Positions 4,259-20,327 are shown, counted from the stretch's first letter. The stretch is DNA of 50,503 bases from Parcubacteria group bacterium (GCA_028286465.1 JAQBRN010000020.1:1-50503), one strand, 5' to 3'. Notes: generated by a model from the sequence alone, not told the origin. Numbers and translations: made by a program.

Positions 4259-4929
4259 TTCGGATTAAAGCGATACCCGACGCCGCGAACAGTTTCGATC
4301 ATCGTGCCGTCCGTGTCTTTGATCTTCTTGCGAAGGTTTTTGATCTTCACATCGACGATATTCGAGAACGGATTGAAATCGTAATCCCAGGCATGATCGA
4401 GTATTTCCTGACGCGAGAGAACGCGCTCGGGATGCTTCATCATATAGTGAAGGATGGCGAATTCCCTTTGAGTGAGCTTGATTTCCTTGCCGTTTTTCAT
4501 GACGCGATGAGCGCTTGGGTTAAGGATGATCCTTCCACCTTCAACCTCCTCCGCATACGTGCCCTGGGGACGCCGAAGAAGGGCGTGGAGCCTCGCTACA
4601 AGTTCCATGAAGGCAAAGGGCTTCACCAGATAATCATCCGCTCCGGTATGAAGCCCCTCTATCTTGTCACGTATAGTATCCTTGGCGGTAAGCATAAGGA
4701 TCGGAATGGCGATGCCCTTTTTTCTCGCCTCCCTGCATATTTCGAGTCCATCCATTTTCGGCAGCATGCGATCGAGAATGACCGCATCATAGGTGGCATG
4801 AGATGCTTCGATGCGACGATACCCCGCGTCTCCTTCGGTAAGGAAATCAGCGGTAAAACCTTCTTGCTCAAGGCCTTTTTTAAGCGATCGGGCAAGTTTG
4901 TCATTATCTTCGATAATGAGAATTCTCAT
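4255..4929 (-). CDS. OmpR-family response regulator
   Basis: The track ORF extends to 5034, but the conserved receiver domain begins at MRILIIEDN (ATG at 4929). It has the acceptor-Asp context AVILDRMLPKMDG and the C-terminal winged helix TVRGVGYRF. Confidence 0.9.
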   Translation of the reverse strand: MRILIIEDNDKLARSLKKGLEQEGFTADFLTEGDAGYRRIEASHATYDAVILDRMLPKMDGLEICREARKKGIAIPILMLTAKDTIRDKIEGLHTGADDYLVKPFAFMELVARLHALLRRPQGTYAEEVEGGRIILNPSAHRVMKNGKEIKLTQREFAILHYMMKHPERVLSRQEILDHAWDYDFNPFSNIVDVKIKNLRKKIKDTDGTMIETVRGVGYRFNPN

Positions 4930-4980
4930 GGCGTATATCACTAAGTATACGACACAAGATGACGAAGGGATGACAATGAC

Positions 4981-5009
4981 TTCAGACGGCGTACTAAGTA
5001 CGCTATAGT
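4981..5009 (+). promoter_or_regulatory. Putative nrtR promoter (TTCAGA-N17-TATAGT) with a 15-bp perfect palindrome in the spacer
   Basis: The -10-like TATAGT at 5004-5009 ends 6 nt before the ATG at 5016, which implies a leaderless mRNA. The palindrome GCGTACT-A-AGTACGC lies at 4989-5003. Confidence 0.35.
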
Positions 5010-5015
5010 AGAACC

Positions 5016-5696
5016 ATGCCAAAGACATCGACACAGAAGTTCTACAAACCCTCTATTACGGCCGATGTGGTCGTTTTCACCATCGAAGATAGCTTGCTGA
5101 AGGTTCTGACGGTGAAGCGCGCGGACGAGCCATTTAAAGGCACTCGGGCTTTGCCTGGAGGCTTCATCCTGCCCGGAAGCGACTCGATGGGCACGGCGAG
5201 AAGAATCCTTAAGGAAAAGGCGGGGCTCGAAGGCATCTATATGGAACAGCTCTACACCTTCGACGACCCGAAGCGCGATCCCCGAGGATCGGTCGTCTCC
5301 GTCGCCCACTTCGCTCTCGTACACCGGGATGCTATCTCCCTCGAAACCTCCTCGCATACCCAGGACCCGACCTTCACGCCGCTTAAGCACACCGGCACGC
5401 TCGCCTTCGACCACAAAAAGATCATCGAGTACGCCTATGAGCGCTTGCGAGGCAGGCTCGAATACACGAATATCGCCCAGTCGCTCCTGCCAAAGGAATT
5501 CACCTTCAGCGAACTTCAGAATGTCTATGAAACGATCTTCTCGAAGAAGCTCGACAAAAGGAACTTCAGAAAAAAGATCGAACGCCTCGGCCTCATCAAG
5601 GCCACGAAGAAGAAGATCAAGCGCGGACGCCAGCGCCCGGCCCTCCTCTACACCTTCGCTTCCGGCAAAGCCGAAAGCTTCAAGAATCCATTTTAA
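5016..5696 (+). CDS. nrtR: NrtR-like transcriptional regulator (Nudix domain + C-terminal winged-helix)
   Basis: 226 aa. The Nudix-fold N-terminus has a degenerate Nudix box (GGFILPGSDSMGTARRILKEKAGL, catalytic Glu positions lost). The C-terminal part (FDHKKIIEYAYERLRGRLEYTNIAQSLLPKEFTFSELQNVYETIF...KRNFRKKI) matches the NrtR wHTH pattern. NAD-salvage genes and palindromic boxes lie nearby. Confidence 0.75.
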   Translation: MPKTSTQKFYKPSITADVVVFTIEDSLLKVLTVKRADEPFKGTRALPGGFILPGSDSMGTARRILKEKAGLEGIYMEQLYTFDDPKRDPRGSVVSVAHFALVHRDAISLETSSHTQDPTFTPLKHTGTLAFDHKKIIEYAYERLRGRLEYTNIAQSLLPKEFTFSELQNVYETIFSKKLDKRNFRKKIERLGLIKATKKKIKRGRQRPALLYTFASGKAESFKNPF

Positions 5697-5701
5697 TAAA
5701 T

Positions 5702-5724
5702 AAAAAGAGCCACGATGTGGCTCT
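5702..5724. terminator. Bidirectional terminator between convergent nrtR and kinase genes
   Basis: Stem AGAGCCAC (5706-5713) / GTGGCTCT (5717-5724). An A-run lies to the left and a T-rich stretch to the right. Confidence 0.65.
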
Positions 5725-5745
5725 TGTGTAGAACGATAGAAGGAA

Positions 5746-7485
5746 CTATTTCATCCGAACCGACCAGAGAGACCCGTTCTCGATGTAGACGACCTGGTCA
5801 CCGAAGTTTCCAAGAATCATCTTCGTCGAAACGTGCTTGTCCTCGAGCTTCGTCGCTACTCCACTCGACGGAACGGAGATGCAAAGCTCCCCATCATCCT
5901 CGATACTGGCATTCACGCCCTTCGGCAGAATAGCAATATCGAGCTCCGTGTCATCGACCGCAGTAACGTCGGATCGATATGTCCCATAATCCTTCGAGAA
6001 GACAAGATCGATCCTTTGATACGAACCGGACTTATCCGCCGCGATGACGGATGCGAAGCGATTTCCTGCCTTGCCTCGAAGTACCCTCTTGCCATCGAGT
6101 TCCCGCACACGGACATGCATGAGCCCGGAGTCTCCGAAGGGCAGAAGAAGGAACTTGGCTCCCATGGCATCCTGGATGCCAAGACCGTCGAAGCATTGCG
6201 TGGCATTCGGCAGCGTACTCCATGTTTGTCCGGCTGAAGCGAGCACTTTGGTGCCGAAGCTATGAAGCTTTATTTCGGTCAGCCCACGTTCACCGAGAAC
6301 GAAGAGCCGGTTTTCATACCCGAGGATGCTCTTCGCCTCGATCGAGAATGCCAGCCATTCGGCCTTCTGGCTTCCCATTTCGGCATACGTCAGCTTGGCC
6401 TGGCCATTCTCCTTTTCAAGAATAAGCCAGCCGTCGGGCGTTCGTGCGACTTCGCATTCCCGCCCGACCGCTTTCGCGATCTCCTGCTTCGTATGCACAT
6501 CGACAAGCAGCCCCGACGCAAGAAGCGCCGCACCGGATCTGAATGTTCGTACCACAGCATCGTTCGTCCGCTCGTAGAGCTTCTCGAAGACGAGGAGGCC
6601 GGACTTCCCGATCGTCTGGATGCGGAGCACGCGCGCCGCACTCGATGCCGTCGCAATGTCGAAGTTCGAAGGCGGCATATTCCGTTCGCCTTTTTGAAAC
6701 ACCGCTTCATACCAGGCAAGAAGTCCTTTTGGGATAAGCGAGAAGTCGCGCACTGCCTGGTTCAAGCGCACGTTCGGCGCGAAGACCGATGCATTGGCTT
6801 TCATCCGCTCGAGGAACTCCGTCTTCTTGTACGACGGGTGGGTTCCTTTGTACGGATGGACGCCCGTGAAGACCTGGAACGTAACGACGCCCCAGGAAAA
6901 CCAGTCGCTCTTCTCGTCGAAGCCTTTTGCATTCCAATCCCTGATCGACGGCATAATAGCCGTTGCCGGCCATCTGCCTATGGCCCACGAGTCGACATCG
7001 ACCACGCGGGGTTCCGGGTTCGAACCTCGAAACTTCATGAACCAGTTGAGCTCGTTTGCGTCGACGAGTATCGCTCCGTGCCCGTGGGCGAAGGAGACGG
7101 TATCGCGCATGCGAATGACAAGTTCCTTGGCGAACTTCTCGTTGAAGCCTTCCCTGTTCCAGAAATCATTGGTGAAAACTCTCGAGAGAGGAGCGCATTC
7201 CGCTTCGTCGATATAGGGCATGTAGTAGCCGACGGGGTCGCACTTTTCCGAAACGATGAGTCCTTTCGGCGCGATGACGTACGGCGACTTCAGCTTGCCG
7301 AGCTCCCGGATCTTTGCCGGAATGACCTTCTTCGGATCGGTGAAGATCTTCGCTACAGTGTCCTTTCCGACGCGGTAGATCGACCCTTCGCCGCCCGTTG
7401 CGACGTGATCCGACGGCCTGAGCGTGACGAGCCCCCGGCCGACGAGTTCAACCTTCAAGCTGCCCCGCGATGTCGGTGCCGACAT
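5746..7485 (-). CDS. Ser/Thr protein kinase-like protein with a ~290-aa uncharacterised C-terminal domain (third gene of the vWA/PP2C/kinase triad)
   Basis: G-loop GGEGSIYRV, Lys in VAKIF, catalytic LVDANELN and VVDVDSW. The track start at 7515 is a TTG. The ATG at 7485 is preceded by AAGAGGA and is preferred. It overlaps the end of the PP2C gene by 38 nt. Confidence 0.75.
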   Translation of the reverse strand: MSAPTSRGSLKVELVGRGLVTLRPSDHVATGGEGSIYRVGKDTVAKIFTDPKKVIPAKIRELGKLKSPYVIAPKGLIVSEKCDPVGYYMPYIDEAECAPLSRVFTNDFWNREGFNEKFAKELVIRMRDTVSFAHGHGAILVDANELNWFMKFRGSNPEPRVVDVDSWAIGRWPATAIMPSIRDWNAKGFDEKSDWFSWGVVTFQVFTGVHPYKGTHPSYKKTEFLERMKANASVFAPNVRLNQAVRDFSLIPKGLLAWYEAVFQKGERNMPPSNFDIATASSAARVLRIQTIGKSGLLVFEKLYERTNDAVVRTFRSGAALLASGLLVDVHTKQEIAKAVGRECEVARTPDGWLILEKENGQAKLTYAEMGSQKAEWLAFSIEAKSILGYENRLFVLGERGLTEIKLHSFGTKVLASAGQTWSTLPNATQCFDGLGIQDAMGAKFLLLPFGDSGLMHVRVRELDGKRVLRGKAGNRFASVIAADKSGSYQRIDLVFSKDYGTYRSDVTAVDDTELDIAILPKGVNASIEDDGELCISVPSSGVATKLEDKHVSTKMILGNFGDQVVYIENGSLWSVRMK

Positions 7486-8362
7486 GATCTTCGTCCTCTT
7501 CGTGAAGGTGTTCAATATGGATGACGGCCATCGACACGTCGTCGACGGGCTTCGAGCTTTTGCGTTCGTAATTCTTTAGTGCGCGGATCATCCGCCTCTT
7601 GGCGAATTCTCCGGCGAAATTCTTGAACGACATGAGTTCGACGACGGCATCGATCCATTCGACGCCCTCGATCTGAGCTGCACCGTCCGAGAAAACCGCC
7701 ACGGACTCGAGCGTTTCGATTTCTTCGTTCGTGATCTCTTCGAAAATTCCAAGGAGTCCGTCGCGAAGATTGAATTCGACGATCCTACTCTCACCTACCT
7801 TCCCGAGTGTGTCGATGAAGACATCCGTTCGGGACAAGCGCATGGCAGACAAATCTCCGCCATGAGTCTTCACGAATTCTTCGAGATCGAGACCGGTGTA
7901 GGCCGGGTAGAAGGGCGTATTGTCCGCCCATTCGTAGTGCGAGGCAACCAAGCTCCCGTCCGTAAATTTCTTCGCGACGACGCCGTCGCCTTCCACATGC
8001 ACGAACCCTCCCGTTTCGGAAAGATAGGCGTACACGCAAGTCGCAAGCATGTCGGAGGACGAGAGACCGAGAAGCATCCGCGCATCGTGAAGAAGTTCTT
8101 TCTTCCGATCTTGTATGGCAACGGACATATCGAGAAGGCCTTCTCGAGGATTCTCCGCAACAGACTTCATCGCTCCGAGGAGCGAAAGGGCCTGAATGCG
8201 CGAGCCCACATCGGTGTGCCGGCCCGTCGAGCAGCCGTCCGAAACGACTGCGACGGCCGATCTCTCGTTCCCTCCCGAAAGCGCGTAATCCTGGCAGGGC
8301 AAGCCGTGCGCGTAATGCGCGCTTCCGATCTGGAAGTAATGATCCGCGTGAAGATTCCTCAT
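7448..8362 (-). CDS. PP2C-family protein phosphatase (PP2C_2 type)
   Basis: The conserved start MRNLHADHYFQIGSAHYAHGLPCQDYA...AVVSDGCSTGRHTDVGSR has its ATG at 8362, preceded by GGAGGAG. The longer track ORF (to 8539) would overlap the vWA gene by 125 nt. Confidence 0.8.
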   Translation of the reverse strand: MRNLHADHYFQIGSAHYAHGLPCQDYALSGGNERSAVAVVSDGCSTGRHTDVGSRIQALSLLGAMKSVAENPREGLLDMSVAIQDRKKELLHDARMLLGLSSSDMLATCVYAYLSETGGFVHVEGDGVVAKKFTDGSLVASHYEWADNTPFYPAYTGLDLEEFVKTHGGDLSAMRLSRTDVFIDTLGKVGESRIVEFNLRDGLLGIFEEITNEEIETLESVAVFSDGAAQIEGVEWIDAVVELMSFKNFAGEFAKRRMIRALKNYERKSSKPVDDVSMAVIHIEHLHEEDEDHVGTDIAGQLEG

Positions 8363-8414
8363 ACTCCTCCAAAGAAAAAGGAATGGCGACCTGCCATTCC
8401 TGTGTGAGAACTTC

Positions 8415-9167
8415 TTAGATGGTAGCCGCGATGTTCTGGCTCGGCCCGCCCGTCCCGAGAGACTGCGACTGGCTCGAGACGGATTGGGAAACGAACCCCG
8501 CGAGCTTGGCGAGCTTCGACTTGGTGGCATCACCGGCATCGATGTACTTCATGCCGGCTTCGGTCTCGAGCTTCGCGAGTTCGGTAGCGCAGAACTTGGT
8601 GTTCACGCCGACGGCGATAGCGATGAGCGATTCGATCTCTTCGCCCTTCGTCCCGCGTTCGATCTCCTTCTTGATCATCGTTGTCGTTGCGGACGACACG
8701 TTGTCGCCGCCATCGGTGATGACGATGACGATACCGTTCGCCAGGAAATCCTGGTCCATGAGCTGCTTGCCGTAAGCAAGCGTGGCGCCGACTGCCGAGA
8801 AACAGGCATCGTAGAGAGGCGTGAGTCCGTCAGGAACGATGTCCGGATACGAACTCGGATCGATATCTCCGAGCGGCTTGAAGCCGTGGATCTCGTCGAT
8901 CCCGTTCGGCAGGGCCGAATTGAAGAAGATAACCCTGACGAGAAGGTTCATCGACCGCGGCGACTTCTTACAGGAGTCAACGGCGGTAATGAGACAATCT
9001 CTCAGTTCCTTATCGAACCCCATGACGGACCCGGTCGTATCGACCGCGATGGTCACGAGCGTGTACTCCGTCGCGCCGAGCTCTCCGATCTTCGTGCCCG
9101 AGAACTTGAAGGCTTGCAGGCCTCGCACGGTTCCCGTTTGCATCGTCGCGTCCTTGAGGCGCGGCAT
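8415..9167 (-). CDS. von Willebrand factor A (vWA) domain protein, TerY-like
   Basis: 250 aa. It has a MIDAS-like VDTTGSV, then GLTPLYDA and IVIVITDGGDN. The SD AAGGAGA lies 5 nt upstream of the ATG. Confidence 0.8.
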   Translation of the reverse strand: MPRLKDATMQTGTVRGLQAFKFSGTKIGELGATEYTLVTIAVDTTGSVMGFDKELRDCLITAVDSCKKSPRSMNLLVRVIFFNSALPNGIDEIHGFKPLGDIDPSSYPDIVPDGLTPLYDACFSAVGATLAYGKQLMDQDFLANGIVIVITDGGDNVSSATTTMIKKEIERGTKGEEIESLIAIAVGVNTKFCATELAKLETEAGMKYIDAGDATKSKLAKLAGFVSQSVSSQSQSLGTGGPSQNIAATI

Positions 9168-9200
9168 GGTGTCTCCTTGTAAGAGGTGAGACTTCCTCGC

Positions 9201-10073
9201 TTACGTGAGGAAGTCCGTGGAAGTGATGAGCGTCATGCCGAGCTTCTGCATGTCCTTCTGCCACGCGTCCGCAATGGCCGGGAAATCCGGTCCGTTGGGA
9301 ACGGCGCCGACAGGGCTCATGCAATCGGTGATGAGCGCGAACTTATTCAGGTGCTCCGATCCGATGTTCTTGGCGATCTGATTCATCGTCGTCAAGAGAC
9401 AGTGGCTCGATGCTTCGCCGAGTGCGCCGATGATGTCGGCTTCGGCAAGGCTTTCGAGCACCGAGGTGTTGAGCTGCGTGCTCGGATCGTCCGGATCGGG
9501 AACTTCGGCCATCAGTGCGCCGAAATGTTCGGTGTGCGGATTCGATCCCTTGGTCACGTAGTCGACCGAGGCGAATTCCTTCTCCGACCAGCGCTGAAGC
9601 GCATCGTTGAGATCGTCCTGGACATTGTGTCCCCAGGTACCGATCTCGCAGTGATTCGTCCAGATCATGAGCGGATACAAACCGCCGGCTTCGAGCGCCT
9701 TCGCGTAGGCCAGTGCACGCGCACGCAGGCCAGGATGGCGCGGCGTCCAGATGCCGGCTTCGATATCGCTCACGCTGATGATGGTGAACGGAGCAGGCTG
9801 CTTGCCCTTCGCGTTCATCCAGTAGCCAGGGCGTTCGATGCCGATCCGGCGGTGGCTGTCGAGGGTGACCTTGATGTCATCGAGCTTGTGCCCGATGCGA
9901 TCGATCATTTTCGCGGCCCGCTTCATGTCGGAAACAGCGCCCTTGACGGGCAGCGCCGCAGTGCGGACGCGGCTCGTGCCGAGCGTTTCGACGAGCGGAG
10001 TACCATCGTCGTTCCCCATGAAATCGTTCTGGGGGTCGATGATAAGGAGGTGAACCTTGAGTCCTTTCGACAT
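9201..10073 (-). CDS. pncA: Nicotinamidase / cysteine hydrolase (long form), paralogue 1
   Basis: Isochorismatase-fold catalytic elements: IIDPQNDF (Asp), VTKG (Lys), EASSHC (Cys). The nicotinamidase-type motif IWTNHCEIGTWG (WPxHC-like) is present. The SD is AAGAGGA. Confidence 0.7.
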   Translation of the reverse strand: MSKGLKVHLLIIDPQNDFMGNDDGTPLVETLGTSRVRTAALPVKGAVSDMKRAAKMIDRIGHKLDDIKVTLDSHRRIGIERPGYWMNAKGKQPAPFTIISVSDIEAGIWTPRHPGLRARALAYAKALEAGGLYPLMIWTNHCEIGTWGHNVQDDLNDALQRWSEKEFASVDYVTKGSNPHTEHFGALMAEVPDPDDPSTQLNTSVLESLAEADIIGALGEASSHCLLTTMNQIAKNIGSEHLNKFALITDCMSPVGAVPNGPDFPAIADAWQKDMQKLGMTLITSTDFLT

Positions 10074-10141
10074 AGAGTCCTCTTAAGGGTAATGGGAACT
10101 GCGGGAAACTTCGGGTTCTTTCTATTCTGTTCTCAATGTAC

Positions 10142-10162
10142 TTAGTGTTCTAGTGACACTAT
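10142..10162. promoter_or_regulatory. Candidate NrtR operator, box 1 (TTAGTGT-tctagtg-ACACTAt)
   Basis: 21-bp palindrome with one mismatch. It overlaps the -10 (TATAGT, minus strand, 10158-10163) of the pncA-1 promoter. Confidence 0.65.
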
Positions 10163-10187
10163 ATACCCATGACCTATTTAGTGTCAA
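10158..10187 (-). promoter_or_regulatory. pncA-1 promoter, TTGACA-N18-TATAGT
   Basis: The minus-strand TTGACA (plus-strand coordinates 10182-10187) lies inside box 2. TATAGT (10158-10163) overlaps box 1. Confidence 0.5.
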
Positions 10188-10198
10188 ATCAACACTAA
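10178..10198. promoter_or_regulatory. Candidate NrtR operator, box 2 (TTAGTGT-caaatca-ACACTAA)
   Basis: Perfect 7+7 palindrome containing the -35 of the pncA-1 promoter. It lies 36 bp centre-to-centre from box 1. Confidence 0.65.
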
Positions 10199-10224
10199 GT
10201 ATCTGTGGATAACTTTTGATATAT

Positions 10225-10246
10225 AAAAACCGCATCGAAATGCGGT
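10225..10246 (-). terminator. Terminator of pncA-2
   Basis: Stem ACCGCAT (10229-10235) / ATGCGGT (10240-10246) with loop CGAA and a minus-strand T-run. It follows the stop codon directly. Confidence 0.7.
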
Positions 10247-10249
10247 GTA

Positions 10250-11110
10250 TTAACTCTTGTTGATTCTCCACTCGACCGATGTCGTGATGGTAGCGCCTAG
10301 ATCCTTCATTTTCCCGAACCAATCCCTAGTGAGCGCCGGGAAATCCGGGCCGTCGGGAACCGCAGGAACAGGGCTCATGCAGTCCGCAAGCATGGTGATG
10401 CGCTCGATCATCAGCGGATTTGCGTCCTTGATCTGCTCCACGGTCTCTCGGACACAATGGCTCGATGCCTCCCCTGCCACAATGACCTCGTCGGCCTCGA
10501 TGACCGCTTCGAATGCTGCTTCATTGAACATCGTGCTCGGATCTTCGGGATCCGGAACTTCCGCAGCGAAAGCGCCGAAATGCTCACTGAAGAGATTCGC
10601 ACCCTTGCTGATGTAGCTGATCGGACGAAGCGTCTTCTCAGACCAGCGCCCGACAGCGCGCCTTACGGCATGGTGGATGTTCGACCCCCATTCGCCGATA
10701 AGGCAATGCTCCGGCCAGATGGTGTGGCGCTTGCCCGCTGCATTGAGTTTCCGAAGATATCTCATTGCCCGAGCATGGAAGTGCGGATCCTTCGTCATCC
10801 AAGTGCCCTGGATCATCTCGTCGGCCGTGATCGAGTCGTACGGCTTCGGTTCTTCACCGTTTCGATTGTGCCAGAAGATCGGATGCGCGATGTGTATCTT
10901 GTTGTGGCCGTCGAGAGAGATCGTGATAGCGTCGATGTCGTCGCTATTCGCGCCGATATACTCCGCCAGGCGAAGCATGTCGTCATGCGAACCGGGTACC
11001 GGCAGAGCAGGCTTCTGCAGCCTGCCCGTGAGCGGATCGAGCGGCTGGTACGGAAGCGGCAGGTCGCAGAAGTGGTCCTGCGGATCAACGATCAAGAGAT
11101 GCGTGCGCAC
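10250..11110 (-). CDS. pncA: Nicotinamidase / cysteine hydrolase (long form), paralogue 2
   Basis: 286 aa, a clear paralogue of 9201-10073 (LIVDPQDHF, ISKG, EASSHC, IWPEHCLIGEWG). It uses a GTG start at 11110. Confidence 0.7.
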   Translation of the reverse strand: MRTHLLIVDPQDHFCDLPLPYQPLDPLTGRLQKPALPVPGSHDDMLRLAEYIGANSDDIDAITISLDGHNKIHIAHPIFWHNRNGEEPKPYDSITADEMIQGTWMTKDPHFHARAMRYLRKLNAAGKRHTIWPEHCLIGEWGSNIHHAVRRAVGRWSEKTLRPISYISKGANLFSEHFGAFAAEVPDPEDPSTMFNEAAFEAVIEADEVIVAGEASSHCVRETVEQIKDANPLMIERITMLADCMSPVPAVPDGPDFPALTRDWFGKMKDLGATITTSVEWRINKS

Positions 11111-11150
11111 ATGAGCCCTTTGCTAGTGTGGAAGGACGAATTCTTTCTGG

Positions 11151-11179
11151 TTTATAACAATATAAATACAAAATGTCAA
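11151..11179 (-). promoter_or_regulatory. pncA-2 promoter, TTGACA-N17-TATAAA
   Basis: Minus-strand TTGACA at plus-strand coordinates 11174-11179 and TATAAA at 11151-11156. It lies just downstream of the pncB terminator. No full palindromic box is present. Confidence 0.45.
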
Positions 11180-11182
11180 TAT

Positions 11183-11206
11183 AAAAACCCGGAGCATTGC
11201 TCCGGG
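11183..11206 (-). terminator. Terminator of pncB
   Basis: Stem CCCGGAGC (11188-11195) / GCTCCGGG (11199-11206) with loop ATT and a 5-nt T-run on the minus strand. Confidence 0.75.
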
Positions 11207-11210
11207 TGAT

Positions 11211-12503
11211 TCAAACATAGACTCGGCTCGACGAGAGGCCTTCGACTCCGAAGATCTTCTTGTAGCGCTCGATCTCCTCTTTCGGGCCGGTGACCTTGTC
11301 GAGGTTATCGGAAAGTTTTATACAAGGAAAATCATTTGCCCTGACGACTTTGCAGACCATCGAGAACGGACGCAGAAGCAGATTCGAACTCGTTCCGCGG
11401 AAGTCGTTCGTGAACAAGGATCCCCAGCCATCTGAGAGATTGATCTCGTCTCCGAGCTCCCGATCGATGCGCTTCATCGACTCGACATCGAGCCCGTCCG
11501 ACGGGATCATGAGCTTCGATTTCGGATCGATCTCCCACTTTCTGAGCCAGTTTATGTACATACGACCGCGAGAAACCGGATCGTTCGAATCCTGGCGCAT
11601 GCCCCTCCACGCTGCTACACATTCGGGTGCATTGTCGAGGAACTGCTTGGTGCCGTACGTGTCCGGAAGGAAGATCCTGAGCGACTGGTTATATGTCTTC
11701 TCCCACAACCGGAGCGGCTCATACTGCGCGTCGACCTTGTCCTTATCCGGCGCGAGCGCCACGAGTACCATGGGCATCTCGTGAGCATTCGTGCCGATCG
11801 GCGAGAGATCGTGACGGAACGCCATCCATGTGTTCGACGTTCCGATGAACTGCTCGCCCATCATGGACTTGGCAAGCCCGATGGCCCATTCCTGCCAGAG
11901 GAAGCTGTGACGCCTGCGCTGTCCGAAATCGGAGAACGTGATCCGCGGGAACTTTTGCAATTCCTCGAGCTTCCGCGACAGCTTGTCCATCGCTCGCGCG
12001 TAGACAAGCTCGAGCTCGTGCTTCGACATCGTCTTCATGACGGCGCGATAGTAGAGCTCCGAGATGACGGCGAGGGCGATCGTTTCCCACATCGAGACTT
12101 CCGCCCACTTTCCCGTGAAGGACAGTTCGATCTCCTTGCCCTTGCGCACGAGGCGATACGGCGGGAGCTTCAACGTCCTGAGAAAATCGAGATACCCCTC
12201 CTTGAACATGTAGTCCTGATGGAGGTTCATCCCGCGCAAGTAGTAGATATCCGTCCGTGAGAAGGTTAAGTCTCTCACGTAGTCGAGACTTTCTCTCAGC
12301 TGGTCTTCAGGAATGATCTCTCCGACCGGAATGTCCTTGTCTCGAATGATGAGCTTGAAGGTGACTTCCACATCGGGATAGTATTGCCAGATGACCTGGC
12401 CCATCGTGAACTTGTAGAAATCGATGTCCATGAGCGACCTGACGGGCGCACTGAACTCGGCCGCATTCATCCGGGCGACATCGGCGAAGTGAGTATTGCT
12501 CAC
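11211..12503 (-). CDS. pncB: Nicotinate phosphoribosyltransferase
   Basis: 430 aa. SLMDIDFYKFTMGQVIWQYYPDVEVTF matches the PncB N-terminal signature. It uses a GTG start preceded by AGGAGGA. Confidence 0.9.
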   Translation of the reverse strand: MSNTHFADVARMNAAEFSAPVRSLMDIDFYKFTMGQVIWQYYPDVEVTFKLIIRDKDIPVGEIIPEDQLRESLDYVRDLTFSRTDIYYLRGMNLHQDYMFKEGYLDFLRTLKLPPYRLVRKGKEIELSFTGKWAEVSMWETIALAVISELYYRAVMKTMSKHELELVYARAMDKLSRKLEELQKFPRITFSDFGQRRRHSFLWQEWAIGLAKSMMGEQFIGTSNTWMAFRHDLSPIGTNAHEMPMVLVALAPDKDKVDAQYEPLRLWEKTYNQSLRIFLPDTYGTKQFLDNAPECVAAWRGMRQDSNDPVSRGRMYINWLRKWEIDPKSKLMIPSDGLDVESMKRIDRELGDEINLSDGWGSLFTNDFRGTSSNLLLRPFSMVCKVVRANDFPCIKLSDNLDKVTGPKEEIERYKKIFGVEGLSSSRVYV

Positions 12504-12553
12504 AGGTCCTCCTGTGCTTCAAGTGAAAGAACACTAGACTTTTACCGGGCGAT

Positions 12554-12581
12554 ATAGTACCATTCCCAGTAAGATTGTCAA
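12554..12581 (-). promoter_or_regulatory. pncB promoter, TTGACA-N16-TACTAT
   Basis: Minus-strand TTGACA at 12576-12581 and TACTAT at 12554-12559. Confidence 0.5.
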
Positions 12582-12597
12582 TACAGGCGTACCCGCT

Positions 12598-12626
12598 TTG
12601 ACAACCCCATACATCTAGACTACTAT
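12598..12626 (+). promoter_or_regulatory. nadE promoter, TTGACA-N17-TACTAT
   Basis: TTGACA at 12598-12603 and TACTAT at 12621-12626. It is arranged back-to-back with the pncB promoter. Confidence 0.5.
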
Positions 12627-12628
12627 AC

Positions 12629-12649
12629 TTAGTGTAGTATAGACACTAA
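12629..12649. promoter_or_regulatory. Candidate NrtR operator, box 3 (TTAGTGT-agtatag-ACACTAA)
   Basis: Perfect palindrome starting 3 nt after the nadE -10. It covers the expected transcription start and ends 4 nt before the nadE ATG. Confidence 0.65.
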
Positions 12650-12653
12650 ATAA

Positions 12654-14582
12654 ATGCAAGACTTCGGCTTCATCCGCGCTTCGGCCATTACTCCCGATCT
12701 TCGTATCGGAGATATTTCATATAATGCAAAAGAGATCATAAAGACCGGGAAGGCGGCAAGCGCGGACGGAGCGTCCTTCATCGTCTTCCCCGAACTCTCC
12801 ATCACGGGGTATTCGATCGGCGATCTTTTTCATCAGGAACTCGTTTGGCAGAAGACGCTCAGTGCACTCGAGGACATACGGAAAGCCCTCGCTTCCTCCC
12901 CTGCTCTTGTCGTCGTGGGCGCCCCGCTTATCATCGGAGGCTTCCATGCCAATTGCGCCGTCGTTCTCTACAGGGGCCGCATCCTTGCCGTCATACCGAA
13001 GACCTACCTGCCAGGCTACAAGGAATTCTATGAGAAGCGCTGGTTCGCATCGGCGAAGGACATTACTGCGACAGAAATAGAGCTCGGAGGACAAATCGTC
13101 CCCGTCGGCACGGATATTCTCATTAAAGCCGCAGACAACATCATTTTCGGCATCGAGATCTGCGAAGACCTCTGGGGTCCGCTTCCTCCGAGTTCCTTTC
13201 AGGCCGTAGCCGGAGCGACCATCATCGGCAATCTCTCCGCATCGAACGAGCTCGTCGGGAAGTCCGCCTACAGGCGCGACCTTGTGAAGAACCAATCGGC
13301 TCGCTGCATCGCGGGCTACGTATACGCATCATCCGGCGTCCACGAATCCTCGACCGACCTCGTCTTCTCTGGGCACTCGCTCATAGCCGAGAACGGCACG
13401 CTGCTTAAGGAGAGCGAGCTTTTCCAGGATAAGTCGCAGATCATCTCCGCCGACATCGATGTCTCTCACTGCGTCGAAGATCGCATCCGTACGACAAGCT
13501 TCGCGGACTCTGCCAAGGAAATTCTTCATCGCCCGTTCCGAACCATCACTCTCGACGACTTCGTGCAAAAAGAAACGAAGGAACTTCTAAGGCCTCTGGC
13601 GAGAAATCCTTTCCTGCCGACAGACGATGCCAAGAAGCACCAGGTAGCCGAAGAAGTCTTTAACATCCAAGTGGCAGGGCTTGTTCAACGTTTGAGAGCA
13701 ACGAATATTAAAACTATCATCATCGGCCTTTCGGGCGGACTCGATTCGACCCTTGCCCTTCTTGTGGCTTTGAATGCAGCCAAGAAGCTCAACCTTCCAT
13801 ATAAAAACATCCGAGCCTTCACCATGCCGGGCTTCGGCACGACCAAGCGCACCAAGTCGAATGCGCATATCCTCGCAGAAGCTTCGAATATTTCCATAGA
13901 AGAAATAGACATCACCGAGGCAAGCAGGCAGCACTTCAAGGATATCCATCACGACGAGCGTATCGAAGATCCCACTTTCGAGAATGTCCAGGCTCGCTAC
14001 AGAACCATGATCCTTATGGACAAGGCCAATCAGTTGAACGGTCTCGTCTTGGGCACCGGCGACCTTTCGGAGATCGCTCTCGGCTGGGCCACCTTCAATG
14101 GTGACCACATCTCTCATTACAACGTGAATGTCGGCGTGCCGAAGACCCTTATCCGTCATGTGGTCTCGTGGGTTGCAGATACTTCAGACAATGCGACGCT
14201 TTCGAAAACTCTTAAGAGCATTCTCGACACCCCGATCTCTCCGGAGCTGAAGCGCGCAAAAGCTGGCAAGATCACCCAAAAAACCGAAGACCTTATCGGC
14301 CCGTATGAACTCCATGACTTCTTCCTCTATCACTTTATCCGCTGGGGTTCGAGGCCGCAGAAGATCCTCTTTCTCGCCGAAATTGCATATAAAGGCACGT
14401 ATTCGAAAGCGGAGATCAAAAAGTGGCTGACGCTCTTTATAAAAAGATTCTTCGGCAATCAATGGAAGCGCTCGGTAGCATCCGACGGTCCGAAGATCGG
14501 TTCCGTAGCCCTTTCCCCCCGCGGCGACTGGCGCATGCCTTCGGACGCAAGCGTCTCTCTCTGGCTCAAAGAACTCGACTAA
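12654..14582 (+). CDS. nadE: Glutamine-dependent NAD+ synthetase (CN-hydrolase domain + NAD synthase domain)
   Basis: 642 aa. The N-terminal nitrilase-type domain has FPELSITGY and EICEDLW. The C-terminal ATP-PPase domain has the motif GLSGGLDST. Confidence 0.9.
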   Translation: MQDFGFIRASAITPDLRIGDISYNAKEIIKTGKAASADGASFIVFPELSITGYSIGDLFHQELVWQKTLSALEDIRKALASSPALVVVGAPLIIGGFHANCAVVLYRGRILAVIPKTYLPGYKEFYEKRWFASAKDITATEIELGGQIVPVGTDILIKAADNIIFGIEICEDLWGPLPPSSFQAVAGATIIGNLSASNELVGKSAYRRDLVKNQSARCIAGYVYASSGVHESSTDLVFSGHSLIAENGTLLKESELFQDKSQIISADIDVSHCVEDRIRTTSFADSAKEILHRPFRTITLDDFVQKETKELLRPLARNPFLPTDDAKKHQVAEEVFNIQVAGLVQRLRATNIKTIIIGLSGGLDSTLALLVALNAAKKLNLPYKNIRAFTMPGFGTTKRTKSNAHILAEASNISIEEIDITEASRQHFKDIHHDERIEDPTFENVQARYRTMILMDKANQLNGLVLGTGDLSEIALGWATFNGDHISHYNVNVGVPKTLIRHVVSWVADTSDNATLSKTLKSILDTPISPELKRAKAGKITQKTEDLIGPYELHDFFLYHFIRWGSRPQKILFLAEIAYKGTYSKAEIKKWLTLFIKRFFGNQWKRSVASDGPKIGSVALSPRGDWRMPSDASVSLWLKELD

Positions 14583-14656: not shown

Positions 14657-15187
14657 ATGCAGGAAACAGACAAGAAGAGACCCGGTATCGTTACCGTCGG
14701 CCTCTTCGGCACCTGTGGAGGCAGTAAGTGGCGCCATTCCTTCAAGGAGCGCTACAGCATGGACGGAATTCACTTCTTTGACCCACAGGTCGAGAACTGG
14801 GATCCGTCGATGGCCGCGATCGAAGCAGATCATCTGGCAGAGGACGAGATCATTCTCTTCCCTGTCACAAGCGAGACCTATGGCATCGGATCATTGGCCG
14901 AAACCGGCTTCTCGGTCCTACAGGCCATTCGGCTCGATGATCGGCGCGACTTCGTCATCATGATCGACATGCACCTTGACGAAGCGCTGCACGAAAACTC
15001 TCTCGCCGCAAAGGAGTCGCTGCGGGCACGAGCGTTGGTGCGCAAGCACCTTGAAAAGCTTCGTCTCTCGAACCTCTTCCTTGTCGACAACCTCGACGAG
15101 ATGCTCGCCGTGAGTCTGGACCTCTGCAAGGCTGCGAAGTTGAAGCAGGGGCTGCTCCAGTTCAACCCTCATCGCAGAGGCGTCTGA
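14657..15187 (+). CDS. Nucleoside 2-deoxyribosyltransferase-like protein (NDT-like, paralogue A)
   Basis: 176 aa. VTVGLFGTCGGSKWR ... DEIILFPVTSETYGIGSLAETGF matches the Rossmann-like NDT-like family pattern (family call from memory). Confidence 0.55.
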   Translation: MQETDKKRPGIVTVGLFGTCGGSKWRHSFKERYSMDGIHFFDPQVENWDPSMAAIEADHLAEDEIILFPVTSETYGIGSLAETGFSVLQAIRLDDRRDFVIMIDMHLDEALHENSLAAKESLRARALVRKHLEKLRLSNLFLVDNLDEMLAVSLDLCKAAKLKQGLLQFNPHRRGV

Positions 15188-15201: not shown

Positions 15202-15234
15202 ATGCCGGACATCACAAGATGTCCGGCATTTTTC
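15202..15234 (+). terminator. Terminator of NDT-like gene A
   Basis: 11-bp stem ATGCCGGACAT (15202-15212) / ATGTCCGGCAT (15219-15229) followed by TTTT. Confidence 0.8.
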
Positions 15235-15240
15235 ATATCG

Positions 15241-15269
15241 TTGACATTAGATAATTCAAATAGTATAAG
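15241..15269 (+). promoter_or_regulatory. Promoter TTGACA-N17-TATAAG
   Basis: TTGACA at 15241-15246 and TATAAG at 15264-15269, immediately after the terminator. Confidence 0.55.
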
Positions 15270-15309
15270 TCAGGATAGATTGTTCACTTATTCATCCGCG
15301 GAGTGGTTT

Positions 15310-15783
15310 ATGTCCAGAGAAGTCGACCGCAAGTCAGAAGAAATCATGAAGCTTTTGGAGAAGGCGCCAATCTTCTCTCGGTTTGGTTTCGTACACATCC
15401 GCCCCGCACTTGAGGGCGAGCGTGTTATTACCAAACTAGCGAATGGTGCAGAAGAAACCGAAAACATTGCACAGAAAAATGAGTGGGTAGTAAGAAACCC
15501 CTCAGGTGAGGAGTGGATCATCGATACAGACACCTTCCGTTTCTATGAGCCCACCGAGGTTCCCGAAAAGTTCATTTCGAAAGGTTTCTGCCGAGCGGTC
15601 AAAAACCCTTTTGGCGAACCGATCGAGATCATGGCTTCTTGGGGATCGCGTCAGATCGGCGACGAGAACTGCATGATCGTTGATGCATGCAACGAAGATG
15701 CATCTTGGACTCACGGAGAACCCAAGATCATCGATGGAGATGCTTTCCAAGCCACGTTCACGCCGCTAACTACGAATAAGTAA
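15310..15783 (+). CDS. Hypothetical protein (157 aa)
   Basis: The track ORF starts at 15202 inside the upstream terminator. The first ATG after the promoter is at 15310 (MSREVDRKSEEIMKLLEK...). I recognise no family. Confidence 0.55.
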   Translation: MSREVDRKSEEIMKLLEKAPIFSRFGFVHIRPALEGERVITKLANGAEETENIAQKNEWVVRNPSGEEWIIDTDTFRFYEPTEVPEKFISKGFCRAVKNPFGEPIEIMASWGSRQIGDENCMIVDACNEDASWTHGEPKIIDGDAFQATFTPLTTNK

Positions 15784-18822: not shown

Positions 18823-19821
18823 TTAATAGATGTCTATAAGTTTCTCTGCGAGTTCGAGAGGCTCTTCGAAGGCCTTGCTGAAACTCTTCCATTCTACAGG
18901 AATGGATTCGAGTCCGCAGTTGGCTCCGATAAGGGCTCCCGCGATGGAAGCGTTGGTATCGGTATCGCCTCCGGCATTCACGGCTTCGAGAATGCCCGTT
19001 TTGAAATCCTTCGGGTGTCTCAGAAACGTGCCTATGGCGAAAGCAGCCGCATCGAGCGCGCTGAAGCCCGACCCAACAGCCCGAGAAAGGCTCTCTGCAT
19101 TATCTAAATGATCCGTTATCTTTTCGAGTCTTTCCGAGACCGATTCATATTCAGACGGTTCTTCTGTTTCGAGCTCTTTGATCGTCTGTATGATGATTTC
19201 AAGATATGCCGCTCCGGAACTCGCATCCATGCCGCCTTCGCTTTCAAGTATTCTTTGAAGAAACAGGGCAACTGCATATGCCGCAATACTTGCCCGAATA
19301 TCAGGGTGCGTCATGGAGCCGAGCGCCTTCACATCCTTCCAGAGTTCTTCACCGCTGCCTCGCCTTAAGGAGTTATTGACGCCAAGCGGCGAGACCTTCA
19401 TGACAATGCCGCTTCCGCAGCCCTTGCCCGGTACTCCCGGAGGAAGCGGATCTTGACCGGGTATTCTCTTACCATCTCTGATCGCTTCTATGGCGATCTC
19501 CGTCGTTTTGCCCCAGCCGAATTTGCTCTTGCTGTATGAGCGGACATGCTCCTCAGCGCAGTCGACGATGTCGAATGCTCCCTTCGTGCGCACAAGCGAA
19601 CGCAAGACGACTGCCGTGAGCTGCCAATCGTCCGTCGTGTCGCCGGCCTTCAAGTCCCCGAGCCAGTCGGTACGATTGATCGGATCGATAAAGCCCGTAA
19701 GCCCCTTCCCAGCCGTATCCTTCAAAATCTCTTCATGACTCATCGTCTCGACCGGCATGCCCAAAGCATCACCGATAGCGATTCCGAGGAAACAACCTTG
19801 AATTCTATTGCTTGTTGTCAT
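18823..19821 (-). CDS. ADP-ribosylglycohydrolase family protein
   Basis: GCFLGIAIGDALGMPVE and GGDTDTNASIAGALIGA are hallmark ARH motifs. The preferred start is MTTSNRIQ (ATG at 19821), which overlaps the upstream stop as ATGA. Confidence 0.85.
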   Translation of the reverse strand: MTTSNRIQGCFLGIAIGDALGMPVETMSHEEILKDTAGKGLTGFIDPINRTDWLGDLKAGDTTDDWQLTAVVLRSLVRTKGAFDIVDCAEEHVRSYSKSKFGWGKTTEIAIEAIRDGKRIPGQDPLPPGVPGKGCGSGIVMKVSPLGVNNSLRRGSGEELWKDVKALGSMTHPDIRASIAAYAVALFLQRILESEGGMDASSGAAYLEIIIQTIKELETEEPSEYESVSERLEKITDHLDNAESLSRAVGSGFSALDAAAFAIGTFLRHPKDFKTGILEAVNAGGDTDTNASIAGALIGANCGLESIPVEWKSFSKAFEEPLELAEKLIDIY

Positions 19822-20306
19822 GGTGTATGAATAAGCTTCTCTTTGATACATCGCTCTACTGCCTTGATACATTCCGGAAGCAACTCAAATATCGGAATCC
19901 CATACTGCTTCGCAATGATATCGACATTGCCCTTGCGCCAGAAACCTTCCGGACAGCAAACAAACACCTTGCCGCTCGCGGCGAAGAGCCCGAGTTCGAG
20001 GAGGCTTATCGGCGACTTCGTCTTCGGATCGAAATAGAACAAAATGACATCCGCTTCTTTAAGTCCCCGCTGCTCCCATTCGACTTGTTCCTTAAATACA
20101 GGATTATGAATGCTTTGTTCGATACCGCTATCCCAGACCGGTCGGCGCGGATTCAGAAGCACGATGTCGTACGCTGAGAACTCCTCGGCAATACCATCTT
20201 GCCAGCGCTCAGCAGTATCCATCTCGATGCTTCCGGCAAGAAACACCTTAGGCTTGCTTGCTTCTCGTTCCGTATCAAATGCGTGTGGTGCGTGAATCAT
20301 CTGCAT
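19818..20306 (-). CDS. Nucleoside 2-deoxyribosyltransferase-like protein (NDT-like, paralogue B)
   Basis: 162 aa. KVFLAGSIEMDTAERW ... ADVILFYFDPKTKSPISLLELGLF follows the same family pattern as 14657-15187. The ATG directly abuts the palindromic box. Confidence 0.55.
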   Translation of the reverse strand: MQMIHAPHAFDTEREASKPKVFLAGSIEMDTAERWQDGIAEEFSAYDIVLLNPRRPVWDSGIEQSIHNPVFKEQVEWEQRGLKEADVILFYFDPKTKSPISLLELGLFAASGKVFVCCPEGFWRKGNVDIIAKQYGIPIFELLPECIKAVERCIKEKLIHTP

Positions 20307-20327
20307 ATAGTGTTATATATACACTAA
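20307..20327. promoter_or_regulatory. Candidate NrtR operator, box 4 (aTAGTGT-tatatat-ACACTAA)
   Basis: 21-bp palindrome with one mismatch. Its AT spacer provides the only -10-like element, implying a leaderless NDT-like/ARH/Nudix transcript. Confidence 0.6.

Follow-up and report, generated by a model that had tools for sequence, protein, structure and literature searches.

Nicotinamidase, PncB, NadD and NadE together make up the Preiss-Handler route to nicotinamide adenine dinucleotide (NAD+). How triads of a vWA (von Willebrand factor type A) protein, a PP2C phosphatase and a protein kinase work, such as TerY-P and the YegL-PphC-YegI trio of Escherichia coli, has to our knowledge only been hypothesised. 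TerY-P is defined by a kinase that is fused to a zinc ribbon or, in the defence version, to an oligonucleotide/oligosaccharide-binding (OB) fold and by an association with restriction or defence systems, and TerY-P-like modules have also been reported as stand-alone defence systems (PMC11090510). For NrtR proteins other than the one described here, ADP-ribose was shown to suppress binding to DNA in vitro (PMC2330246). Three NAD+ reconstitution pathways (NARP) of phages are known, with NARP1 consisting of Adps and Namat, NARP2 of Nampt and Nmnat, and NARP3 of PnuC and NadR, and a survey of viral NAD/ADP-ribose systems by the Aravind laboratory treats NadV, NadM and NadR and leaves PncA unmentioned. 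Here we analyze a four-gene block at positions 5746-10198 of a 50,503-nt stretch of DNA from a Parcubacteria group bacterium (JAQBRN010000020.1), which is called the window in the following and to which all coordinates refer. According to the open reading frame (ORF) calls, the block lies on the minus strand and reads pncA-1, vWA, PP2C, kinase, the first gene encoding a nicotinamidase-like protein.

An original prediction, made by a model from the DNA sequence, described the block as a TerY-P-type triad co-transcribed with a nicotinamidase from an NrtR-controlled promoter and suggested a role in defence or signalling. Our analysis favors, with a probability of about 0.6, a different reading, in which the block is an NrtR-controlled cassette for NAD salvage with a built-in phospho-switch and not a defence island. 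The assignment to NAD salvage is based on the NAD genes in the neighborhood, the overlap of the promoter with the operators, and the conserved gene order.

Conservation of the Gene Order in Bacterial Genomes and Phages

Related loci were collected with a profile of the vWA protein, on the one hand from one genome per species (80 loci) and on the other hand from IMG/VR and two genomes (485 and 595 kb) listed in GenBank as 'uncultured phage' (39 loci), retrieval being based on two conserved peptide patterns per search. The original prediction had named an absence of the adjacency of pncA and the triad from relatives as evidence against itself. The adjacency is present: a pncA-like gene was found upstream of vWA in 74 of the 75 assessable genome loci and in all 39 viral loci, and PP2C and kinase genes were found downstream in 52 of 54 and 33 of 35 assessable loci, respectively. 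The genome loci belong mostly to many lineages of Patescibacteria, and further ones to metagenome-assembled genomes of Desulfobacterales, Thiodictyon, Thiotrichaceae, and Accumulibacter (labels as deposited). Many of the viral loci come from phages of 200-595 kb; some of the IMG/VR contigs, e.g., L086, may be cellular. Altogether, the arrangement, one of the most constant gene orders that we were able to measure, is shared in order and strand by more than 150 loci with protein identities of 37-75%, which are distributed over several lineages of Patescibacteria as well as Proteobacteria, Desulfobacterota, and phages. A chance adjacency or genomic hitch-hiking, with the nicotinamidase and the triad functionally uncoupled, is hard to reconcile with such a distribution and we consider it highly improbable.

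The two nearest homologs of PncA-1 (74-76% identity) are encoded in loci with the order pncB, pncA, vWA, PP2C, kinase and a convergent nrtR gene. When the search was started from the PncA side, vWA was located downstream in 50 of 65 assessable metagenome loci, and pncB took its place in about half of the remainder. In eight viral loci pncB is located between vWA and PP2C, accompanied there by nadE in six of them. The PncA-vWA pair is the constant core of the cassette; it occurs without PP2C and kinase in L075, L078, L089, and L083, the last one being a Variovorax megaplasmid.

To characterize the surroundings, all neighboring ORFs of 123 loci were clustered. Beyond the four core families, the families found were pncB (47 loci), nrtR (45 loci), nadE (22 loci, plus 8 with a short form), a NadD-like adenylyltransferase (21 loci), NAD kinase (10 loci), a NadR-like protein (6 loci), and ADP-ribosylglycohydrolase (5 loci).

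The phage loci show a looser spacing, which can be attributed to the insertion of homing endonucleases of the HNH/endonuclease VII type. One such gene is present between vWA and PP2C in the huge phage locus L084 (LR745208.1; locus positions 10798-12576). In L117, the cassette is adjoined by a reverse transcriptase/HNH gene of the group II intron type. The flanks of other viral loci contain genes for phage RNA ligase, reverse-transcriptase/HNH proteins, and PHROG families of unknown function.

The locus L083 is situated on plasmid 2 of Variovorax sp. SRS16 (NZ_LR594667.1, 630756-647469). There, divergently from an NrtR-like gene, lies a gene for a PncA-like cysteine hydrolase, which is followed by vWA and by genes for a 207-aa unknown protein, a protein with a nucleoside-2-deoxyribosyltransferase domain, and an NAD kinase; PP2C and kinase genes are absent from it. 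Adjoining genes encode Nudix, macro-domain, RecX, AlkB, and RNase HII proteins. This plasmid might offer a culturable model of the PncA-vWA pair.

Promoter and NrtR-Type Boxes of pncA-1

The sigma-70-like promoter in front of pncA-1 (Table 1) was the best consensus match in the scanned 8.1-kb region 4900-13000. The proposal that both of its elements lie under NrtR boxes was confirmed: box 1 spans the -35 hexamer completely, and box 2 overlaps the -10 hexamer by 4 nt, or by 5 nt with the 21-bp box as the basis, and also the likely transcription start. The motif TAGTGT-N7-ACACTA is present in four exact copies in the window, compared to none in 100 dinucleotide-preserving shuffles. Two copies belong to pncA-1, one to nadE, and one to an operon with an ADP-ribosylglycohydrolase gene. 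With their GT-N7-AC core and 21-bp palindrome the boxes match the reported properties of NrtR sites (PMC2330246). As the fourth box precedes the ADP-ribosylglycohydrolase operon, the predicted NrtR regulon extends to the turnover of ADP-ribose and ADP-ribosylation. The putative regulator, encoded by nrtR next to the block, matches the Pfam families NrtR_WHD (4.9e-23) and NUDIX (4.1e-9). Its match to the NCBIfam model of the ADP-ribose-responsive repressor (2e-47, 161.7 bits) stays under the equivalog cut-off of 400 bits, which characterizes it as a divergent member of the NrtR family.

A survey of the related loci, as proposed with the original prediction, showed that NrtR-type boxes recur in front of the pncA-like gene. 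When at most one mismatch over the 12 specified positions was allowed and the 450 nt ahead of the start of the pncA-like gene were considered, 41 of 77 loci were positive, and roughly half of the genome loci (39 of 80) also contained nrtR itself. The density of boxes was 1.68 per kb in the 450-nt upstream zone versus 0.049 per kb in the remainder of these loci, a difference of approximately 34-fold, and many of the boxes in the remainder stand ahead of pncB, nadE or nrtR. As in box 1 of the window, the sequence TTGAC is contained in 12 of the 58 upstream boxes.

The pncB gene of the window is preceded by a good sigma-70-like promoter on the minus strand (12554-12581, TTGACA-16-TACTAT with TG). 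No NrtR-type box was found at this promoter with up to three mismatches allowed. Boxes do precede pncB in relatives such as L002, L003, and L007.

Transcription Units within the Four-Gene Block

The spacer between pncA-1 and vWA was described in the original prediction as a 33-nt gap devoid of a terminator. Sequence scan and folding agree with this description, as no terminator-like site was detected in the spacer and its fold is unremarkable (-11.3 kcal/mol, z score -1.2). The accompanying statement that the next terminator follows only after the kinase gene has to be corrected, because a hairpin with a T-run in the 52-nt spacer between vWA and PP2C had been overlooked. This hairpin has a 9-bp G+C-rich stem and a 5-nt loop (-21 kcal/mol, z score -2.2) and equals in its canonical form the terminators after pncB, pncA-2, and kinase. 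By the logic of the original prediction, the uninterrupted unit thus comprises pncA-1 and vWA, and expression of PP2C and kinase requires either read-through or an internal promoter that escaped detection. The promoter scan, which extended over the 3' portion of vWA (minus strand), yielded no PP2C promoter above the threshold.

The spacers of 74 related loci were compared with respect to stable hairpins, defined as those with -10 kcal/mol or less. In only six loci did the pncA-vWA spacer contain a stable hairpin that was followed by a T-rich tail. The vWA-PP2C spacer contained a stable hairpin in 68 loci, 44 of which had a T-rich tail, and the sequences varied between the loci. The retention of the hairpin at this position despite varying sequences points to selection on its structure. 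The simplest reading is that the hairpin after vWA is a partial terminator, which is predicted to yield far more PncA and vWA than PP2C and kinase.

Alternatively, the hairpin might be an efficient terminator, so that NrtR would govern only pncA-1 and vWA, and PP2C and kinase would be expressed, perhaps constitutively, from a promoter inside vWA while serving the same pathway. The canonical form of the hairpin and T-run, the conservation of their position, and the four loci with a PncA-vWA pair lacking PP2C and kinase are in line with such a division into two units. The empty promoter scan speaks against it, and so does the lack of space for a promoter past the hairpin, since the T-run TTTTTCTTT directly abuts the ribosome-binding site of PP2C. 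Furthermore, in hairpin-free loci outside the Patescibacteria (L068, L072, L073, L082) vWA and PP2C are separated by only 1-12 nt, indicating that they form one operon there. We regard two separate units as rather unlikely.

Long pncA-vWA spacers of 59-104 nt (L010, L014, L027, L030, L055, L060, L063) often contain a very stable G+C-rich hairpin (-22 to -33 kcal/mol) that lacks a T-run and could serve as an RNA stabilizer or processing site.

The Nicotinamidase-Like Proteins

PncA-1 had no match in Pfam at E ≤ 10 and none in NCBIfam at E ≤ 1, including PF00857 and the NCBIfam PncA model. For some of its homologs PF00857 is a precomputed annotation, and among the 4714 relatives in the protein collection, mainly from Patescibacteria, some are named nicotinamidase or cysteine hydrolase. 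A profile of 27 PncA-1 sequences, when compared to the PDB, retrieved nicotinamidases exclusively, namely PncA of Mycobacterium tuberculosis (3pl1, E 4e-4) and two others, and the alignments with these three take in the DxQNDF, WPxHC, and catalytic cysteine motifs. Residues D13, K175, and C225, forming the catalytic triad, and the metal ligands D72, H74, and H141 are invariant in all 27 sequences, the assignment of D72 and H74 as metal ligands being derived from the motif and not from the alignment. These motifs suggest that PncA-1 is a nicotinamidase-like enzyme, and the context of pncB, nadD-like, and nadE genes argues for deamidation of nicotinamide. Searches of the PDB with the single sequences of PncA-1 and vWA had returned noise only. 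As this long form of PncA escapes Pfam and NCBIfam, the annotation of NAD salvage in these genomes may be incomplete.

Another gene of the long-form type, pncA-2, encodes a protein with sub-threshold matches only in Pfam and NCBIfam. We rejected the idea that pncA-1 arose by a recent duplication, because it shares 41% identity with pncA-2 versus 74-76% with the orthologs that are found in the corresponding position in L001 and L002. The close relatives L001-L003 do not possess pncA-2, and this gene looks like an inserted, possibly constitutive, copy. Its promoter, TTGACA-N17-TATAAA, was read by eye and is absent from the list of the promoter scan; the gene has its own terminator (10246..10229), and its flanks (11111-11210 and 10199-10249) are free of NrtR boxes.

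The vWA Protein, the Phosphatase and the Kinase

The vWA protein had no match in Pfam, including its vWA families, or in NCBIfam, and a search of the PDB with the vWA profile was unsuccessful. Its fold was assigned via an AlphaFold2 model (pLDDT 85.7), for which the PDB matches listed by Foldseek were nearly all vWA or integrin I domains (E about 1e-8). The residues of the metal ion-dependent adhesion site (MIDAS), D43, S47, T116, and D152, are invariant, and the C-terminal tail SQSVSSQSQSLGTGGPS is for the most part invariant, too. Homologs carry the JGI label YegL, and a comparison of the vWA profile with E. coli YegL by hhalign gave a weak match (probability 40%, E 3e-4) spanning the MIDAS motifs and the Ser-rich C-terminus. 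The vWA proteins form a discrete family; at E ≤ 1e-30 it amounts to 506 clusters (50% identity) out of 1.84 billion representatives.

The phosphatase matches Pfam PP2C_2 with an E-value of 1e-15. It has an N-terminal GxxHxxxxLPCQD motif in common with PphC of E. coli, and the similarity of the two proteins in BLASTP was not significant (E 0.17). For the kinase, a weak match to Pfam Pkinase was obtained. Its AlphaFold2 model (pLDDT 86) consists of two domains, an N-terminal domain of the eukaryote-like protein kinase type and, at residues 296-579 approximately, an all-beta domain of roughly 29 strands with a propeller-like appearance. The Foldseek matches were protein kinases, the best one being LRRK2, aligned over about 640 columns. 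Since LRRK2 combines a kinase with a WD40 domain, we read this alignment as covering both domains of the model. Residues K46, D142, N147, and D165 of the kinase are invariant, and its profile matched YegI in hhalign with a probability of 96.6% (E 7e-10). In E. coli K-12 the genes are arranged in the order yegL (vWA), pphC (PP2C), yegI (kinase), which is identical to that of the triad.

Relation to Defence Systems

The original prediction considered the block a TerY-P-type anti-phage or toxin-like triad that is induced by ADP-ribose and whose nicotinamidase would clear nicotinamide during NAD-depleting defence. The E. coli-like gene order, the relation of the kinase to YegI, the occurrence of TerY-P-like modules as stand-alone defence systems (PMC11090510), and the formation of ADP-ribose by defence effectors with NADase activity fit this idea. 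Several results argue against it. PncA-1 had no match in PADLOC, and vWA and PP2C had none even at E ≤ 10, the presence of TerY-P models in that PADLOC release being unconfirmed; the kinase gave only weak generic kinase matches, mad6 and PD-T4-6. Neither the zinc ribbon nor the OB fold of TerY-P is present in the kinase, and no defence family recurs among the clustered neighboring ORFs of the 123 loci, where genes of NAD metabolism are found. Huge phages carry the cassette along with pncB and nadE, in part inside it, and in close relatives the PncA linked to the triad is the sole pncA-like gene found in the locus and directly follows pncB. A defence function as originally envisaged therefore appears improbable.

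Features of the Window

The coordinates of the features are summarized in Table 1. The start of the kinase gene and the end of the PP2C gene share 38 nt. The G+C content of the four-gene block (5746-10073) is 0.56-0.61 per kb compared to about 0.52-0.53 in the flanks. Downstream of nadE, genes for a weakly Nuc_deoxyri_tr2-like protein (14657-15187, plus strand) and a PGDYG-domain protein (15202-15783, plus strand) are located, which may be part of the NrtR-controlled nadE unit.

Table 1. Positions of genes and regulatory elements in the window.
Feature	Position	Strand	Remarks
pncA-1, long-form nicotinamidase-like cysteine hydrolase, 290 aa	9201-10073	-	ORF call, profile match, motifs, pncB context
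vWA (MIDAS) stand-alone protein, 250 aa, Ser/Gln-rich C-terminal tail	8415-9167	-	AlphaFold2 and Foldseek
PP2C-family Ser/Thr phosphatase, 304 aa	7448-8362	-	Pfam PP2C_2
Ser/Thr kinase, 579 aa, YegI-like N-terminal and all-beta propeller-like C-terminal domain	5746-7485	-	Pfam, AlphaFold2, Foldseek, hhalign
Sigma-70-like promoter TTGACA-N18-TATAGT	10187..10158	-	11/12 consensus positions
NrtR-type operator box 1, TTAGTGTTGATTTGACACTAA	10178..10198	-	Exact TAGTGT-N7-ACACTA at 10179-10197
NrtR-type operator box 2, ATAGTGTCACTAGAACACTAA	10142..10162	-	Exact TAGTGT-N7-ACACTA at 10143-10161
pncA-1/vWA spacer, 33 nt	9168-9200	-	AAGGAG ribosome-binding site
Terminator-like hairpin and T-run in vWA-PP2C spacer	8401..8371	-	AGGAATGGC-aggtc-GCCATTCCT then TTTTTCTTT
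Terminator common to the convergent kinase and nrtR genes	5697..5725	-	Hairpin 5725..5705 and T-run
nrtR, Nudix and NrtR winged-helix	5016-5696	+	Pfam; convergent with kinase gene
pncA-2, second pncA-like gene	10250-11110	-	Upstream of block, between pncB and NrtR-box promoter
pncB	11211-12503	-	Upstream of block; Pfam NAPRTase
Third NrtR-type box	12630-12648		Between nadE promoter and nadE start; exact match
nadE	12654-14582	+	Divergent from pncB; Pfam NAD_synthase and CN_hydrolase
ADP-ribosylglycohydrolase gene	18823-19872	-	Follows deoxyribosyltransferase-like gene
Nucleoside-2-deoxyribosyltransferase-like gene (PF15891)	19818-20306	-	Directly behind fourth box
Fourth NrtR-type box	20308-20326		5' of nucleoside-2-deoxyribosyltransferase-like gene; exact match

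Discussion

For the NAD-salvage cassette we propose the following mechanism. NrtR would repress the pncA-1 promoter, and ADP-ribose released by the cleavage of NAD+ would free it. NAD+ breakdown would in this way switch on pncA-1 and vWA together with the box-bearing nadE gene and ADP-ribosylglycohydrolase operon. If the hairpin after vWA is leaky, PncA-1 and vWA would be formed in bulk and PP2C and kinase in small amounts via read-through. Kinase and PP2C might then set the phosphorylation state of vWA, most plausibly at its invariant Ser-rich tail, which could toggle a MIDAS-dependent binding of vWA to the nicotinamidase or another salvage enzyme and thereby gate the flux from nicotinamide to nicotinate, with the propeller-like domain of the kinase possibly acting as sensor. 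Phosphorylation of the vWA tail, MIDAS-dependent gating of a salvage enzyme, and the sensor function of the propeller are the most speculative and weakest steps of this scheme.

Several points weigh against the interpretation as a cassette for NAD salvage with a phospho-switch. The PncA-like protein stays under the thresholds of Pfam and NCBIfam, and its substrate is deduced from motifs and context. The kinase target and the vWA ligand proposed here are guesses. If the hairpin after vWA acted as a full terminator, PP2C and kinase could be outside of NrtR control. No box of the exact type was present within 450 nt in 36 of the 77 related loci, some of which carry one further upstream at pncB or another gene; the non-Patescibacteria probably use other NrtR motifs. 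Finally, the retrieval of loci by peptide patterns biases the sample toward well-conserved members of the family.

NAD+ is a central battleground of phages and bacterial immunity. We tentatively suggest, as a possibility rather than an expectation, that the cassette serves as a regulated module for reconstituting NAD+ by the Preiss-Handler route, which in huge phages would represent a fourth kind of counter-measure against NAD-depleting immunity, converting the nicotinamide formed by host NADases to NAD+ with the kinase, PP2C, and vWA switching it on during infection; the NrtR/ADP-ribose-induced copies in Patescibacteria would be its cellular form. Such a phage-borne regulated route from nicotinamide to NAD+ would widen the known NAD+ reconstitution pathways. 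If the assignment holds, the first enzymatic target of a TerY-P-like triad would be defined. Moreover, the near-constant synteny of a relative of the TerY-P triad with an enzyme of known chemistry and a metabolite-sensing repressor makes its function directly testable.

In open-access full texts and preprints we found no paper linking the components of the cassette, in agreement with the original prediction, which knew of no description of a connection between pncA and the triad, although an earlier description elsewhere is possible. The NrtR-regulated two-gene unit nrtX/nrtY (PMC2330246) was considered as the same module and dismissed, as it has no described function and occurs in other phyla, and no link to it was found. 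NARP3 was ruled out as the same system because of its composition. The phage cassettes that include pncB and nadE would resemble NARP1-3 in rebuilding NAD+ from the cleavage product nicotinamide. In contrast to the cassette, none of the three pathways uses PncA, PncB or NadE and none has the trio of vWA, PP2C, and kinase.

The closest relatives are found in two other groups of systems. The locus shares with TerY-P and YegL-PphC-YegI the same three domain families in the order vWA, PP2C, kinase; the kinase domain specifically resembles YegI, and a MIDAS motif and a Ser-rich C-terminus are common to the vWA protein and YegL. It differs from TerY-P in that the C-terminal part of the kinase is an all-beta propeller-like domain instead of a zinc ribbon or OB fold, in the nicotinamidase-like gene that precedes the triad amid NAD genes, and in that it is linked neither to ter genes nor to restriction systems. 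The designation TerY-P-type is thus appropriate for the architecture and the relation to YegI, and it does not extend to the kinase C-terminus or to an association with defence. With the described NrtR regulons (PMC2330246) the locus has in common a gene for a repressor with Nudix and winged-helix domains adjoining pncA, pncB, and nadE, 21-bp GT-N7-AC palindromes that lie over promoter elements or between promoter and start codon, and ADP-ribose as the anti-repressor reported there. Unlike these regulons, the promoters of pncB and pncA-2 are box-free in this genome, PncA-1 (290 aa) is divergent and goes unrecognized by Pfam and NCBIfam, and the pncA-led operon runs on into vWA, PP2C, and kinase, genes that occur in none of the regulons tabulated in that study. 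We classify the cassette as the combination of an NrtR regulon with a TerY-P-like triad.

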